A stretch of 10,644 nt of DNA from Desulfosoma sp. (GCA_037481835.1 JBBFKW010000029.1:1-10644), one strand, 5' to 3'. Shown: positions 98 to 9,114, numbered from the stretch's first letter. A program made the numbers and translations. The notes: generated by a model from the letters alone, not told the origin.

Positions 98-101
<4 letters not shown>
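1..101 (+). CDS. cooS: 3' end (partial) of probable anaerobic carbon-monoxide dehydrogenase catalytic subunit
   Basis: Frame from nt 3 reads MIAHIDKKREALGIMGPRERKLFDMADRRALD* (TAG 99-101). This matches from memory the C-terminal HIDKKRxALGI...RERxLFDMxxRR tail of deltaproteobacterial Ni-CODH. Only 32 aa are visible. Confidence 0.7.
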
Positions 102-2155
<2,054 letters not shown>

Positions 2156-2156
2156 G

Positions 2157-2855
2157 TCATAACCTCTCATCGTCCGAGCGTGGCGGCGGATCGAAACGAT
2201 CCACGCTGACCGAAAATTCCTCACCGGCCGAAGGCCGGACGGTGTAAATGCGATCGGCGTGTTCGCGGAAAAGATCGATGTTGTGGTGACTGATGACCAG
2301 CACCTGAAACCCCAGCTTGTGGGCGATGGTGTGCACGATCCCCATGAGGCGCGGGACCAGATCGGGCCTCAGCCAGCAGTCCTGTTCGTCCAGCACGAGA
2401 AAGCGCCGGTGTTCCCGTTCGTCCAATTGGGACAGCGCGATGAACCGAAGCCCGACCGAAAGGACATTGCACACGGATCCGCCCTGGCCCCGCAGGATGT
2501 CTTCCGGCATCCCGTCCCGCTCGATCCCGAACTGGATATGCACCTTCCCGTACTTCACGTCCCGGGACGTGACCACGCGGAGATCCTGGCCCAGGATATC
2601 CTGTAGGGCGAAGGTGAGGTTGGTTTCAATTTCTTTGAGGATATCGCCGAAATAGGCCCTGGCCAGTTCCTCCAGGCGCTGCGCCGCGGCAGGCTGCACG
2701 GCCAGGAAGTCTTCCTCGGCCCGCAGCTCTTCGAGCTTCCGGAGCCGTTCCTTTTCCAACGCCTGTGCTCGCCACTGAAGGGCCGTCACCCGGTCCCTGA
2801 AGTCTTTCGGGGGTGGCGGTTCCCAAGCGTGGCTCAGGCTTTCTTTTTCAGTCAT
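2157..2855 (-). CDS. C-terminal half of a split SbcC/Rad50/SMC-like ABC ATPase
   Basis: N-terminal helical segment, then signature-position motif ILRGQGGS, Walker B FLVLDE, D-loop region QDCWL, H-switch VLVISH and a terminal ADRIYTV strand. No Walker A. ATGA overlap (2852-2855) with the upstream gene. Confidence 0.85.
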   Translation of the reverse strand: MTEKESLSHAWEPPPPKDFRDRVTALQWRAQALEKERLRKLEELRAEEDFLAVQPAAAQRLEELARAYFGDILKEIETNLTFALQDILGQDLRVVTSRDVKYGKVHIQFGIERDGMPEDILRGQGGSVCNVLSVGLRFIALSQLDEREHRRFLVLDEQDCWLRPDLVPRLMGIVHTIAHKLGFQVLVISHHNIDLFREHADRIYTVRPSAGEEFSVSVDRFDPPPRSDDERL

Positions 2856-3199
2856 GAAGCCGGCTCCGTATCCGCCTGCGCTTCGATGCGCTCCAGGGCG
2901 TCTTTGATGGAGGCGATGTGTTCCTCATAGGCGGCCACTTTCTGCGCGTTTTCTTCCCGCCAGCGGGCCAGCAAGGCCTTGAGCTCCTCTACGTCGCTCG
3001 TGCCGTATTCTTCTTCAGCGCGTCTTTTCAGATCTTCCAGCTGTTCTTTGAGATTCTGAAGGGTCGTGTCGGTTTCGATCTTTTTCTTCTGCAGGGCATC
3101 GTGTTCCTTGCGGAGCTTTTCCAGGGCTTCTTGAATTTTCTTGTCTTCCGCCGGAACGGTTTGGGTGTTCGACCCCGAGCGATCAGGCTTTGGCGACAC
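2852..3199 (-). CDS. Small coiled-coil protein (~115 aa), accessory subunit of the split SbcCD-like operon
   Basis: Heptad-like E/K/L-rich helices either side of a YGTSD turn. Start reassigned to GTG 3199 (GAGGAGG 9 nt upstream); the track's extension to 3349 overlaps the nuclease gene and looks non-coding. Confidence 0.8.
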   Translation of the reverse strand: MSPKPDRSGSNTQTVPAEDKKIQEALEKLRKEHDALQKKKIETDTTLQNLKEQLEDLKRRAEEEYGTSDVEELKALLARWREENAQKVAAYEEHIASIKDALERIEAQADTEPAS

Positions 3200-4178
3200 G
3201 GTCCATGACCTCCTCGTAGAGTTTCCAAATGATGGGCGTTGCGGGATCCTGGGGATCCAGGTTGGCTTCCAAAAAGGCCTTAAGACCCACGCCTTCCGTG
3301 GTTTTCCGAAGGGCGAGGTTTTCCAGGCCGCGGATGAAGCGCGACGCATCCGGCGTCTCGTCCGCAGCCGTCAGGGCGTCGTCCATGGGCGGAAACACTT
3401 CGTCGAAAGGGGCGTGAGGGACGTCGAGACGAGCGGGTTCCGGCATGTCCGGGGTCCAGAGGGCGGCGGCGGGTCGGACGGCTCGCGTGACGCCGCTTCG
3501 GGTGATACGGGTGAGGCTCCCCGGGTTGACCCACAAGGTGCTTCCGCGCCGTTGCGGGGGTTTGGGGGTGTGGATGTGCCCGTTGACGACGAGGTCCACG
3601 CCGGGAATTTCCCGAAGGGCGATGCGGCCGGCGTCGTAATCGGGAAAGCTCACGTTGTGATGCGTCACCCACACGACCACGTCGTGCCCGCACGGGTCCA
3701 CGGCTGAAGGAATGTCCGTCCAATCGGGGGAGGCTCCCAGGAGCACACGCGTGGATCCGCATTGGAGGCTCGCTGCCGGACCGGGCCGATCCAGAAGGAC
3801 GATCACGCGGGCGGCGTCCAGGACAGCCAGGGACACGTCCCGGGTCAGGCGGGCTTCGTGTTTGTCGTGGTTTCCCACGAGCACCCACGGCTTCACGGGC
3901 CGGAACAGGTCCATGAGTTCCACGAGAAGGCCGTTGGGATTATCCCGGGGCACATGAAAGAGATCCCCGAGAATCACTGGAAGGAGCCGGCGTTTCGCGG
4001 ATTCGCGAAGGCAGAAGTCCAGCTTGCCGAGGACGGCCGTCCTGTAGTCGTCCATGCGATGTCCCGGGGGATAGGCGGCCACGTGGGGGTCCCCGATGAA
4101 AAGGATGCCGCGAAAGCCTTCCATGACGGGGAGCGAACCGCCGCCGCCGTTTCCGGTTGCGCCGTTTCGTTCAGCCAT
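3183..4178 (-). CDS. Mre11/SbcD-like calcineurin-fold metallophosphoesterase (putative nuclease)
   Basis: All five motifs are present: IGDPH, LGDLFH, VGNHD, THH, NGHIH, followed by NPGSLTR typical of SbcD/Mre11. GGAGG RBS; 8-nt overlap with the upstream stop. Confidence 0.9.
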   Translation of the reverse strand: MAERNGATGNGGGGSLPVMEGFRGILFIGDPHVAAYPPGHRMDDYRTAVLGKLDFCLRESAKRRLLPVILGDLFHVPRDNPNGLLVELMDLFRPVKPWVLVGNHDKHEARLTRDVSLAVLDAARVIVLLDRPGPAASLQCGSTRVLLGASPDWTDIPSAVDPCGHDVVVWVTHHNVSFPDYDAGRIALREIPGVDLVVNGHIHTPKPPQRRGSTLWVNPGSLTRITRSGVTRAVRPAAALWTPDMPEPARLDVPHAPFDEVFPPMDDALTAADETPDASRFIRGLENLALRKTTEGVGLKAFLEANLDPQDPATPIIWKLYEEVMDRVAKA

Positions 4179-5736
4179 GGTCGGCCTCCAGGAAATGCTC
4201 GGCGTCTATGGGTTGGCGGCAAAAGGGGCACAGGGGCATGGCGGCGATCAGTTCTTGAACGGCCTGGCGTTTTTCTTCCAGCTGCCGATCCAGGCTTTCC
4301 TGCTGATGGTGCAGGCGTTCCCATTGGCGGTGGAGCCTTTCCAGGGGATCGAGGATCCGAAGGATGGGTTCCAGATCCTTCAAGGGCGGAGGCGGGTCGA
4401 GGGAATCCAGGCGCCGCCGTTTCATTTCCAAAACGTCCACGGCGTGCTGGAAGGTTTCCAAGGCGGCCGTCGTTCGGATCAAGTCGTGGGGATCGCGAAC
4501 CTCGGGAGGCGGACTCAGGCGGTTCAATTCCTGGCATTTGGCCTGAGCGGTGTCCAGGGATCGGCGCAGGGATTCCATTGTTTCGCTGGTTCGGGCCAGA
4601 TCCTGTACGGGACGAAGTTCGGGCGGCGTTTCCAGGGGTTCCATGGCCCGCCTTCGGTGCTCTTCCCGGTGCCGGCGCCCGACGGTTTCTTCCATCCGTC
4701 GGGTGAGGTGCGCCAAGGTGGCCGTATCCCGAAGGGGCGGTGGAGGTTCCGTTCGGTTGTAGACCGCCGCTTGGAAGGAAAGGCGGGAGACGCTGCGGTC
4801 CATGCGGCCGAGGGCTTCGAGCAGGCCGTCGAGTCGGGCCGTCTCTTTGAGGGGCGGCGGGGCGTCCAAGGGGGTGAGGGCGGCTGCGGCGCGTTCGGTT
4901 TTGTCGAGCAGGGCGAAAATATTGTGGAGCTTTTCCAGGGCGGCGTGCAGAGGGGGCACGTCGTGGAGCCGAGGGGGTGTTTGAAGGCTTTCCAGTTCGA
5001 GGGATGCCTGGGACAAGGTGCGCGACCGATCCAAGAGGCTTTGGGCTCGCCGGATCACGGCGTCCAGAGCCGGCATGGCCCGGCGCAAAGTTTCGATCCG
5101 CTTGTGGAGCGCCTCGGCTTCGTCCATGGTTTGGGCGATCTGAGGCAGAGCCTCGAAGGCGGCCAGATTGTTTTCGATTCTTTGGATGGCTTCCTGGAGC
5201 CGCTTGCGTTCCCTCTGGGCTTGGGCGGCGCGTTCCTTGAGGGCCTGCTGCATGGCCAGGAGGTATTCGGCTTCCGTGGATGCCGCGAAGAACCCGGCGG
5301 CTTGGCTTCCCGACTGGTCCAAAAGGAAGATGGGGGTGCGCTGATTGCCGATGTGGACGTCCACGGAGCCGGATTCGGTTTCCAGGCTGTGGAGGCGAAG
5401 CAGCCGGCGGATGTCGTCGGGCACAACCCCGCGGCCGACCTTGGCGTAGGTTTCTTCCGTCCCGTCGGGAAAACGCGCCCGGTAGACGACCGATCCCGCC
5501 GTCCGTTCCCATTGGATCCAGGCGCCGTCGTCCAGCTCCAGGCGCACCACGGCCTTGTCCGCCCCGTGGCGGATGAGCGGCGCCGACGGCGGGTTTTCCG
5601 CCACACAGCGGATCGCTTCCACCACGGCGCTTTTGCCCGTGTTGTTCGGTCCCGTGAGGACCGTGACGCCCCGGTGCAGGTCCAACACCGTATGGCGGTG
5701 GGTCATGAAGTTTTCGATGACGAGTCGATGGATCAT
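4171..5736 (-). CDS. N-terminal half of a split SbcC/Rad50-like ATPase ending in a CxxC zinc-hook motif
   Basis: MIHRLVIENFMTH start typical of SMC/SbcC, Walker A GPNNTGKS (5629-5652), Q-loop-like HIGNQ, long helical arm, and CPFC (4219-4230) 15 aa before the stop. No signature or Walker B. ATG 5736 has a GAGG RBS; 5769 is the alternative start. Confidence 0.88.
   Translation of the reverse strand: MIHRLVIENFMTHRHTVLDLHRGVTVLTGPNNTGKSAVVEAIRCVAENPPSAPLIRHGADKAVVRLELDDGAWIQWERTAGSVVYRARFPDGTEETYAKVGRGVVPDDIRRLLRLHSLETESGSVDVHIGNQRTPIFLLDQSGSQAAGFFAASTEAEYLLAMQQALKERAAQAQRERKRLQEAIQRIENNLAAFEALPQIAQTMDEAEALHKRIETLRRAMPALDAVIRRAQSLLDRSRTLSQASLELESLQTPPRLHDVPPLHAALEKLHNIFALLDKTERAAAALTPLDAPPPLKETARLDGLLEALGRMDRSVSRLSFQAAVYNRTEPPPPLRDTATLAHLTRRMEETVGRRHREEHRRRAMEPLETPPELRPVQDLARTSETMESLRRSLDTAQAKCQELNRLSPPPEVRDPHDLIRTTAALETFQHAVDVLEMKRRRLDSLDPPPPLKDLEPILRILDPLERLHRQWERLHHQQESLDRQLEEKRQAVQELIAAMPLCPFCRQPIDAEHFLEADHG
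4294..4995 (-). repeat. Six tandem 39-aa (117-nt) degenerate protein repeats within the ATPase arm
   Basis: Units begin LESLQTPPRLHD, LTPLDAPPPLKE, YNRTEPPPPLRD, MEPLETPPELRP, LNRLSPPPEVRD, LDSLDPPPPLKD at an exact 39-residue spacing (counted by hand). Confidence 0.9.
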
Positions 5737-6921: not shown

Positions 6922-7043
6922 CTGTGGATGGCTTTACCCACGCTGCGGGCCAGCATGAGCCCCGTCAGTTCATCCAAGTTGCCAAAGAAGCCCGACTCCA
7001 ATGCCCGATCCCGGCTCTTGAACCGCCGCCTGCGGAAATCATC

Positions 7044-7466
7044 GCCCCGACGGGGCCGAACCCCCATTCCCATCCCCGAAGGGGCCGAAACACCCCTGTG
7101 CCATAGCCCCGAAGGGGCGAAACATTCCAGCCCAGGGCGAAGCCCTGGGAGGCTGTCCGAGAACGAACCCGAAGGCCTCTTCTCCTGGGAGCGCGGGCCT
7201 CCGGCCCGCACGAAAAGCGGGCGAGACGCCCGCCCTCCCAGGAATATGCCATTCTCGGACACGCTCCTGGGGTCCAGGGGCATCCCCCCACCAGCCAGCC
7301 CCGAAGGGGCGAAGGAAGGCCGGGTTTGGCAATCGGCGTCCTCACCTCGCGCGCGGTTTCCATCGGTGTTTGAGAGAGAGCGGCACGGGAGAAGGTCGTC
7401 CTCGCCTCGCGGGCGTTGGGCCCGGGGGCGATACCCGGGCTGTGTTCCTGTGCCCCTTCGGGGCAC
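7044..7466. repeat. Cluster of REP-like palindromes between convergent genes
   Basis: GCCCC-GAA-GGGGC-type hairpins at 7044-7056, 7074-7084, 7106-7118, 7298-7310 and inverted at 7452-7464. Also CCCAGGGC-GAA-GCCCTGGG at 7131-7149 and a second REP doublet at 7183-7243. Confidence 0.8.
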
Positions 7467-7598
7467 TATGGGGCAAAAGCCCCCCTCCTTCCCAAACAAC
7501 CCCTGGAAATCGGTTTCCCCTTCGGCTTGAAATTCCATCCCCAAAAATCTGCCGGGCACCAGTCCCTGCGCGACTCCCGCAATCGCCGAAGGCACCCC

Positions 7599-8556: not shown

Positions 8557-9114
8557 ATGAGAAAAAGCACGGGATTGAGGACTCATCGGGTCTTCGGAGC
8601 GATAGGACTTTTCCTTGCGGTGATCGTCGCCACGTCCGTTTCGGCCAAGGACTACAAGCAGTGCGTGATCCTGGACATCCAAAAGCCGTCCAACAAGGTT
8701 GTCTATTCCGAGGACAACGCCACGGATACCGTTGTCTTGGATTCCAAGATGCTCTTCTTTACCACAGGCGACAACTTCAACGTCGTCGTCTCCAACAAGT
8801 GCAAGGAGCAGGGGGAGCTCTACGTGACGGTTGAAGTGCCGGGCCAACAGGCGGGAAGCGTAAGCAAATATTATCACTACCTGGACTCCACCGCTGGTGG
8901 ATTGCCGGCCATGGCCTTGCAGACGGACAAGAAAGCCTTTGCGGAAGACTTCCCAAAAGGGGCATCCACAACCCTGTGGTCGTTTGTCGTCCCTGAAAGC
9001 TTGTCCTTTGCCGGACCCGTCGTTTTCCAGGCGCACCTCGTATACCCGGACACGGGAAAGACCATCGGATTCGACGCCAAAACCGTTTACATCAACTTCG
9101 GAATCGATCCCTAA
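8557..9114 (+). CDS. Secreted hypothetical protein with Sec signal peptide
   Basis: AAGGAGG RBS; basic N-region, hydrophobic h-region, VSA|KD cleavage site; beta-rich mature region with two Cys. No family recognised. Confidence 0.8.
   Translation: MRKSTGLRTHRVFGAIGLFLAVIVATSVSAKDYKQCVILDIQKPSNKVVYSEDNATDTVVLDSKMLFFTTGDNFNVVVSNKCKEQGELYVTVEVPGQQAGSVSKYYHYLDSTAGGLPAMALQTDKKAFAEDFPKGASTTLWSFVVPESLSFAGPVVFQAHLVYPDTGKTIGFDAKTVYINFGIDP

Follow-up and report, generated by a model that had tools for sequence, protein, structure and literature searches.

The locus studied here raises the question of how a Rad50/SbcC-like ATPase can be built when its two head lobes are encoded by different genes, with a nuclease gene between them. 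It lies at positions 2157-5736 on the minus strand of a contig from Desulfosoma sp. (GCA_037481835.1 JBBFKW010000029.1:1-10644); the window, meaning the whole stretch of DNA that was analyzed, is this entire 10,644-base contig, and the source genome (3.63 Mb) is 99.4% complete. In Rad50/SbcC and SMC proteins, a long intramolecular antiparallel coiled coil is thought to relay movement between the hook or hinge and the ATPase head. The four genes of the locus, g1 to g4, probably encode a single ATP-driven DNA nuclease of the Mre11-Rad50/SbcCD class, made of four polypeptides and likely serving in housekeeping DNA repair. This split Rad50-Mre11-like design is conserved and apparently undescribed, and it belongs to a widespread natural family in which head, hook motif and Mre11-like nuclease are all preserved, the head lobes being either separate or swapped.

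A four-gene operon conserved across phyla

The locus comprises the following genes:

g1, 4171-5736, minus strand: 521 amino acids (aa); N-terminal ATP-binding cassette (ABC) lobe, arm and terminal CPFC
g2, 3183-4178, minus strand: 331 aa; binuclear metallophosphoesterase, nearest to Mre11/SbcD
g3, 2852-3199, minus strand: 115 aa, GTG start at 3199; small helical protein
g4, 2157-2855, minus strand: 232 aa; ~75 helical residues, then a C-terminal ABC lobe

Neighboring genes overlap by 8 nucleotides (nt; 4171-4178), 17 nt (3183-3199) and 4 nt (ATGA, 2852-2855), and Shine-Dalgarno-like motifs are found 5 to 9 nt ahead of the starts (GAGGA for g1, GGAGG for g2, GAGGAGG for g3 and GGAG for g4). These positions, the three overlaps and the motifs before g1-g3 had been given by an earlier reading of the DNA made from the sequence alone (the sequence-only reading) and were all recovered; the GGAG situated 8 nt upstream of the g4 start adds a fourth motif. 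The open reading frame (ORF) of g1 opens at ATG 5769, yet homologues begin at ATG 5736 (MIHRL...), which has GAGGA 5 nt upstream. For g3, a longer frame from 3349 is listed; the homologues and the GAGGAGG 9 nt upstream fit a start at 3199.

Among the candidates scored in the database, 366 relatives of g1 were found at E<=0.001, and the best 120 of these are mostly 470-640 aa in length and derive from Desulfacinum, Desulfosoma, Desulforhabdus, Desulfobacca and many metagenomes. When one genome per species was scanned, 293 g1 relatives emerged; the best 80 loci were kept, and the 62 loci having at least 2100 nt after g1 were regarded as assessable. The order g1-g2-g3-g4 is present in 59 of these 62, across several phyla, and the three exceptional genomes encode the missing genes elsewhere (g2-g3-g4 apart from g1 in two, g4 alone in one). 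Since the four genes always co-occur and g1 or g4 is sometimes encoded apart, the products must work as separate polypeptides. The split form is also found on complete chromosomes (L045 and L056), and the g2 tree largely tracks taxonomy.

Because the same order, with short overlaps, recurs in 59 of the 62 loci, the operon has evolved rather than decayed, as the sequence-only reading had held. That the window instead shows a canonical sbcCD locus falling apart through frameshifts or assembly errors is highly implausible: g1 is indeed broken into two or three frames at two of the 80 loci (L021 and L048), but the four frames, the overlaps and the ribosome-binding sites recur across several phyla, g2 lies between the ATPase parts, the g1 homologues have one start and one stop in common, and no longer g1 relative (913-2605 aa) was found, although this last point is weak evidence.

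Extra DNA separates g3 from g4 at five loci (L016, L040, L069, L072 and L076). In a Planctomycete (L076:9075-9668) the insertion is a methylpurine DNA glycosylase gene, and in a member of the Desulfovibrionaceae (L072:8616-9503) it is a gene for a CAAX-type protease.

Two lobes of one ATPase head

Judged from conserved motifs and alignments, the Walker A lobe of g1 and the g4 lobe that carries signature, Walker B and H-loop are the two parts of one Rad50/SMC-type ABC head. The motifs are as follows:

5629..5652, minus strand: Walker A GPNNTGKS, g1 residues 29-36; K35 and S36 invariant in 73 sequences
2475..2489, minus strand: signature-like GQGGS, g4 residues 123-127; G126 and N130 invariant in 89 sequences
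2379..2399, minus strand: Walker B and D-loop LVLDEQD, g4 residues 153-159; L155, D156, E157, D159 and W161 invariant in 89 sequences
2283..2291, minus strand: H-loop SHH, g4 residues 189-191; H190 invariant in 89 sequences

With the Q-loop glutamine (Q132, invariant in the alignments), g1 has the N-terminal lobe expected of Rad50/SbcC. The Pfam families AAA_23 (2.5e-11), AAA_15 and SMC_N match its N-terminus only, and a profile of 21 g1 homologues ranks Rad50 heads first among PDB entries (7e-7). The matching C-lobe of Rad50/SbcC, with signature, Walker B, D-loop and H-loop, is found in g4, whose earlier description as a coil followed by signature, Walker B and H-switch was borne out (~75 helical residues, GQGGS, LDE, D159 and SHH).

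Relatives with the lobes swapped on one chain

A search with g4 against 1.84 billion representatives returned 1023 matches at E<=0.001 and 419 at 1e-10. The 150 best g4 representatives have these architectures:

g4-like part fused to a following g1-like part: 86 of 150; 440-959 aa, median 651.5 aa; CxxC within the last 60 residues in 85 of the 86
stand-alone g4-like protein of 300 aa or less: 57 of 150
g4-like part with an extension of ~300 aa that has no Pfam family: 6 of 150
fragment: 1 of 150
canonical lobe order on one chain: 0 of 150

The sequence-only reading had taken homologues that are normally a single fused ORF as a sign against a split system. Fused forms are indeed common, but they have the swapped lobe order, the canonical one being absent from all 150. 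In the type with the ~300-aa extension, the extension replaces the g1 part after a g4-like C-lobe (proteins P0131, P0132, P0140, P0147 and P0148).

Both window proteins can be laid onto the fused chain. Residues 13-223 of g4 align to fused residues 4-205 (hhalign, E 8.5e-49) and residues 2-272 of g1 to fused residues 217-478 (E 5.8e-44), and the break in the window therefore falls in a linker of ~11 residues. These end-to-end alignments with the lobes of a one-chain protein, and the three genomes with g1 or g4 encoded apart, agree with the earlier proposal that the head is assembled in trans. An AlphaFold2 (AF2) model of a fused member (pLDDT 80, and >90 over most of residues 1-440; pTM 0.57) starts with two N-terminal helices, continues through the C-lobe and then the N-lobe to another two long helices, and finishes with a poorly predicted repeat arm and a last helix that holds a knuckle. 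Its residues 215-360 superpose on residues 1-160 of Rad50/SMC heads (Z 10-12, root mean square deviation (rmsd) 2.5-3.0), among them P. furiosus Rad50 (Z 11.5, rmsd 2.7, 144 residues aligned) and Smc1 (Z 12.0), and Foldseek matches the model best to chains that each represent a single half, N or C, of a Rad50 or SMC head. The nearest relatives, fused proteins of 600-700 aa, are thus a circular permutation of the Rad50/SMC head in which the C-lobe comes first.

Metagenome loci fetched with a fused query have both lobes in one frame in 80 of 80 cases, a set that is biased because of the query used to fetch it. The fused operon reads g3-[g4g1]-g2, with g3 just upstream in 72 of the 77 loci with room and g2 downstream in 56 of 62, and this arrangement is a cyclic rotation of the g1-g2-g3-g4 order in the window. 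A tandem duplication trimmed at both ends would convert either gene order into the other. In the g2 tree, which has 73 rows, a branch with a Shimodaira-Hasegawa-like approximate likelihood ratio test (SH-aLRT) support of 99 sets the split forms apart, and a single rearrangement event separates the split and fused orders. Rooting with eight SbcD rows nests the split clade after two fused rows (supports 83 and 88), and midpoint rooting likewise puts it inside the fused diversity; as a monophyletic fused group is not rejected by the approximately unbiased (AU) test (p 0.745), we claim no direction for the rearrangement. The fused row nearest to the split clade in this tree (support 88) comes from a locus, L100:4540-10472, that is ordered [g4g1], a gap of ~1.5 kb and g3-g2, and that has a second metallophosphoesterase gene upstream on the other strand.

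A segmented arm ending in a cysteine pair

The remainder of g1 contains two further features:

4219..4230, minus strand: CPFC, g1 residues 503-506, 15 residues before the stop; a cysteine pair like that of the Rad50 hook
4357..4977, minus strand: repeat part of the g1 arm, with PP at residues 254, 293, 331, 371, 409 and 448; spacing 38-40 aa

The C, P and C of CPxC are invariant in 21 split homologues, and H525, F526 and H531 (532 numbering) are nearly so. The motif sits at the C-terminus with no descending helix after it. The C-terminal end of the g1 profile finds Rad50 hook fragments in the PDB (6zff, 1.6e-4; 1l8d, 0.005), and positions 315-449 of the NCBIfam Rad50 model PRK03918 match g1 residues 390-525. 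This is the best-scoring SbcC/Rad50 model of NCBIfam for g1, with 58 bits against a cut-off of 700, so the curated threshold is not reached. The nearly invariant histidines that follow CPxC in the split clade could complete a zinc site within one chain.

The AF2 model of g1 (pLDDT 70.8, pTM 0.31) has a strand-rich N-lobe, two long helices, six helices of 25-44 residues with loops between them and a cysteine knuckle, and the PP motifs of the window protein fall in the loops between the arm helices. The arm is a chain of six PP-bounded helical units of ~39 aa rather than a continuous coil. Across 54 loci, g1 ranges from 407 to 604 aa in length classes ~40 aa apart, that is, in whole units. Over the same loci g3 stays at 107-119 aa (standard deviation 2.1) and g4 at 220-249 aa, barring one g4 cut by a contig end, and g1 length is uncorrelated with the length of g3 plus g4 (Spearman 0.10, p 0.47, n=54). 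As the arm varies by up to 200 aa and g3 and g4 are constant, these two proteins are excluded as the return strand of the whole arm. The picture drawn by the sequence-only reading, of a canonical Rad50 cut at the hook with its antiparallel arm rebuilt by genes 3 and 4, is accordingly not supported.

The small protein g3 had also been read as a pure coiled coil. In its alignment we see two predicted helical stretches that flank a conserved YGTSD turn. Searches of g3 against Pfam, NCBIfam and PADLOC gave sub-threshold coiled-coil matches only and no known family, the PDB returned generic coiled coils and no specific solved relative, and no homology to the g1 arm was detected (hhalign probability 1.5%). 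An automatic label 'ADP-ribosyltransferase' among the Atlas clusters of g3 was disregarded, having no family behind it; the clusters are otherwise unnamed. The gene accompanies the others at 59 of 62 split loci and likewise at 72 of 77 fused ones.

An Mre11/SbcD-like phosphoesterase

The product of g2 matches Pfam Metallophos (6.4e-8), and the solved structures nearest to its profile are T. maritima SbcD/Mre11 (1.4e-7) and P. furiosus Mre11 (5e-4), all others scoring 0.03 or worse. The phosphoesterase motifs (DxH, GD, GNHD, H and GHxH) supply the metal ligands D30, H32, D72, N103, H104, H173, H201 and H203, which are invariant in 29 sequences. Motif III is located as follows:

3864..3875, minus strand: GNHD, g2 residues 102-105; invariant in 29 sequences

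With Mre11/SbcD as nearest solved relatives and every metal-ligand motif kept, the earlier assignment of g2 to the Mre11/SbcD type stands. A C-terminal region of ~55 aa is conserved as well, and it might serve as a capping domain or as a Rad50-binding helix-loop-helix.

Fused relatives in megaplasmid backbones

A tblastn search of 72,556 PLSDB plasmids located the fused ATPase on 21 plasmids, all between 253 kb and 1.32 Mb, in Pseudomonas (including pMPPla107), Variovorax, Vibrio, Bosea, Alteromonas, Aeromonas, Rhizobium, Acidiphilium and Methylorubrum. A g2 homologue is found on nine of the 21 at E<=1e-8, and the split form on no plasmid searched. In pMPPla107 the module follows topoisomerase, lytic transglycosylase and helicase genes and stands 1.6 kb before the replication initiator, and a Vibrio plasmid has the same neighbors. 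The 801-kb Variovorax plasmid (L182) reads RepB-ParB-ParA-RecJ-DUF2726 ... g3-ATPase-phosphoesterase-ThyA-SLT, and on the Bosea plasmid pANAM02 the module adjoins LigD. The metagenome loci share this plasmid neighborhood, with RecJ in seven of 22 loci scanned. Overall, the fused relatives are accompanied by RecJ, LigD, a UvrD-like helicase, topoisomerase, ThyA and Rep/Par genes. A backbone block of RepB, ParB, ParA, RecJ, DUF2726, the three-gene module, ThyA, SLT transglycosylase and gyrase subunits recurs at L182, L128, L144 and L152.

The plasmid annotations call the module products 'hypothetical protein', 'AAA family ATPase' or 'metallophosphoesterase', and the family marks an unannotated three-gene module in the megaplasmid replication backbone of Pseudomonas, Vibrio, Variovorax, Rhizobium and others. 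The portions consulted of a paper on pMPPla107 (PMC6482414) do not mention SbcC, Rad50 or AAA. In IMG/VR, the fused ATPase alignment gave five weak partial matches and the g4 alignment none; GenBank phages yielded a single match, a partial one (6e-9, N-lobe and arm only) to the exonuclease of Bacillus phage 0305phi8-36.

Repair, defense or plasmid maintenance

The genomic context favors DNA repair over defense. The 60 proteins flanking 19 loci are metabolic or housekeeping in kind, a single MazF and a single HicB-like protein being the exceptions. The methylpurine DNA glycosylase gene inserted at L076, the taxonomic pattern of the g2 tree and the RecJ, LigD and Rep/Par genes near the fused relatives point the same way. 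Among 31 genomes sampled from the class, g2 is present in 10 of 14 genomes of the window's taxonomic order and in none of the 17 others, SbcD (TIGR00619, E<=1e-10) in none of the 14 and in nine of the 17, and both together in no genome. The complementarity is no more than suggestive, because it follows one phylogenetic split. The operon may explain how hairpins and broken ends are processed in an order of sulfate reducers and syntrophs that lacks a recognizable SbcD. A genome of the same genus (G238:C13:2172-2590, L188) retains a broken g1 stub (codons 1-68) between kinase and LOG genes; its neighborhood is that of the window without bases 2106-5535, a 3.4-kb deletion having taken g4, g3, g2 and most of g1. 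The shared neighborhood and the stub imply that the operon is ancestral in the genus and can be lost.

Several observations weigh against a repair nuclease of the SbcCD class. On the side of the proteins, g4 belongs to no Pfam family, its ABC matches in the PDB are weak (0.006) and its signature reads GQGGS, not the LSGGQ that is usual for ABC proteins; the g2 match to Mre11/SbcD spans only the first ~85 core residues (profile positions 25-108), and the curated SbcD model TIGR00619 is not matched by g2 or, at E<=0.001, by anything in the whole genome. On the side of the context, the complementarity of SbcD and g2 amounts to about one independent contrast, and an accessory or conflict role would also fit with the patchy distribution at phylum scale (g2 in 9 of 301 sampled genomes), with the deletion in the same genus and with the presence of the nearest relatives on mobile replicons. 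The genome of the window also has an SbcC-like gene of canonical length (1213 aa; G000:C19:42668-46309, L170:4669-8310), directly after recB- and recD-like genes and with no SbcD-like phosphoesterase beside it. The sequence-only reading had raised the matter of a separate canonical sbcCD; the genome holds this SbcC-like gene, and TIGR00619 finds no SbcD in it.

The role against plasmids or phages that the sequence-only reading had entertained would make the locus a defense system in the manner of Lamassu or Wadjet, in which the SMC-like ATPase recognizes foreign DNA by its ends or structures and frees the phosphoesterase to act on the invader or the host. We consider this quite unlikely. The best PADLOC match of g1 is the Lamassu protein LmuB (PDLC03859, 3.6e-15), which likewise has an N-terminal ABC lobe followed by a helical arm, and the system is a self-contained cassette that stands in differing neighborhoods, is patchy and has been lost within the genus; its relatives are borne by megaplasmids. 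Megaplasmids often carry defense genes. The LmuB match, however, extends over model positions 5-343 of 611, the N-half only, none of g2, g3 and g4 matches LmuA or LmuC, and the nuclease, the metallophosphoesterase g2, matches nothing in PADLOC. As to Wadjet/MksBEFG, only the Walker A stretch of g1 matches JetC (1.9e-6), with no match to the kleisin-KITE partners JetA and JetB or to the Toprim nuclease JetD, and the comparison with a defense catalogue that had been proposed earlier found no system in PADLOC-DB 2.0.0 matched by the four proteins. The flanks are not defense islands, the operon is common within the order and complementary to SbcD there, the IMG/VR scans gave no usable relative, and the megaplasmid copies sit in the Rep/Par/RecJ backbone, not in cargo regions; the context thus lends the defense role no support.

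The same backbone location opens another possibility, namely that the family keeps very large replicons intact through replication-linked processing of breaks or hairpins, and that the split form on the chromosome goes back to such a maintenance module, copied from a megaplasmid, rearranged, and now domesticated or just tolerated. The size of all 21 plasmids, the position beside the replication initiator of pMPPla107 and beside RepB-ParB-ParA-RecJ in Variovorax, the repetition of this neighborhood in metagenome loci and the nesting of the split clade in the outgroup-rooted tree all speak for it. The AU test leaves room for a monophyletic fused group, though, and the split form is found on complete chromosomes and on no plasmid and is inherited largely along taxonomy. 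We regard this explanation as rather unlikely; it concerns the origin of the system and is compatible with the mechanism of the four-polypeptide repair nuclease that we prefer.

Proposed mechanism

For this repair nuclease, we propose the following model. The head would form in trans from g1 and g4, and the ~75 helical residues that open g4 would pair with the first ~100 residues of the g1 arm into a short two-stranded neck. The rest of the arm, three to eight di-proline-bounded helices of ~39 aa, would extend without a return strand from g3 or g4. The terminal CPxC may bind zinc together with its counterpart in a second g1 and so link two complexes tip to tip, with the two g1 arms possibly running side by side. 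The predicted helical hairpin g3 is probably a structural accessory. ATP-driven engagement of two heads would clamp DNA ends or hairpins, which g2 would then cut, and in this lineage the machine most likely does the housekeeping job of SbcCD, in which hairpins and blocked or broken ends are processed for recombinational repair.

A broader proposal, which is doubtful as a whole and which we offer tentatively, is that the system departs from the textbook rule of an arm made by one chain that folds back on itself: beyond the short neck the arm would be a single segmented strand, paired with its equivalent in another complex and clasped by a terminal zinc hook. It holds further that the lobes work whether fused and swapped or separate, and that the family arose as a replication-linked genome-integrity module of giant plasmids and was taken into the chromosomes of Syntrophobacterales/Desulfovibrionales, replacing SbcCD. 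As arm length shifts by whole repeats with no partner strand changing, the family offers a natural test of which arm features are needed.

Comparison with known systems

Bacterial SbcCD and archaeal or eukaryotic Mre11-Rad50, with which gp46/gp47 of phage T4 is counted, share with the present system a Rad50/SMC-type ABC head, a CP-x-C hook motif where the arm ends, translationally coupled genes and, next to the ATPase, a binuclear phosphoesterase, which in the window is closest to Mre11/SbcD among solved structures. In Rad50/SbcC proper, both lobes are on one chain with the N-lobe first and an intramolecular antiparallel coil between them. The window, in contrast, has the head lobes on separate proteins whose genes are parted by those for the nuclease and g3, an arm of a variable number of PP-bounded ~39-aa units that has no return strand on the same chain, and the additional 115-aa g3; the curated SbcC, SbcD and Rad50 models all stay below their cut-offs here. 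The closest kin is the unnamed g3-[g4g1]-g2 family of the megaplasmids, in which all four modules are homologous and the repeat arm, the terminal CxxC (85 of 86) and the cyclic gene order are shared; it differs in being plasmid-borne, with the lobes fused as C-lobe-N-lobe on one chain of 440-959 aa, whereas the window form is split, rotated and chromosomal.

Heads made of an N-half and a C-half chain are also seen in the PDB entries 1f2t/1f2u, 1ii8, 3kta and 9a9j, where the two halves form one Rad50/SMC head (1f2u is listed as two chains of 148 and 142 aa). These are laboratory truncations of one-chain proteins, whereas the split in the present operon is natural and conserved. In the titles and opening abstract text of the literature searched, no split or permuted Rad50/SbcC-like ATPase with a metallophosphoesterase is described.

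Other features of the window

A PAS-GAF-PAS histidine kinase gene (98-2155, minus strand) begins 1 nt past the g4 stop and may be co-transcribed with g4. In Desulfacinum infernum (L003:9558-12428) a similar kinase that additionally carries a receiver domain directly follows g4; the neighbors in other lineages are unrelated.

On the other side of the operon, 680 nt without a credible gene (6922-7598) reach a G+C content of up to 68% and contain a GCCCCGAAGGGGC-type hairpin motif in four copies, along with several inverted repeats of greater length. Within this region, positions 7105-7149 on the minus strand match the Rfam small RNA family Acido-Lenti-1 sRNA with 46.6 bits (gathering score 37). 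Further along, a gene at 8557-9114 (plus strand) encodes a protein of 185 aa that has a hydrophobic N-terminus and belongs to no Pfam family; it lies in the stretch of lowest G+C content in the window (0.54), and the same-genus genome encodes a protein of 56% identity.

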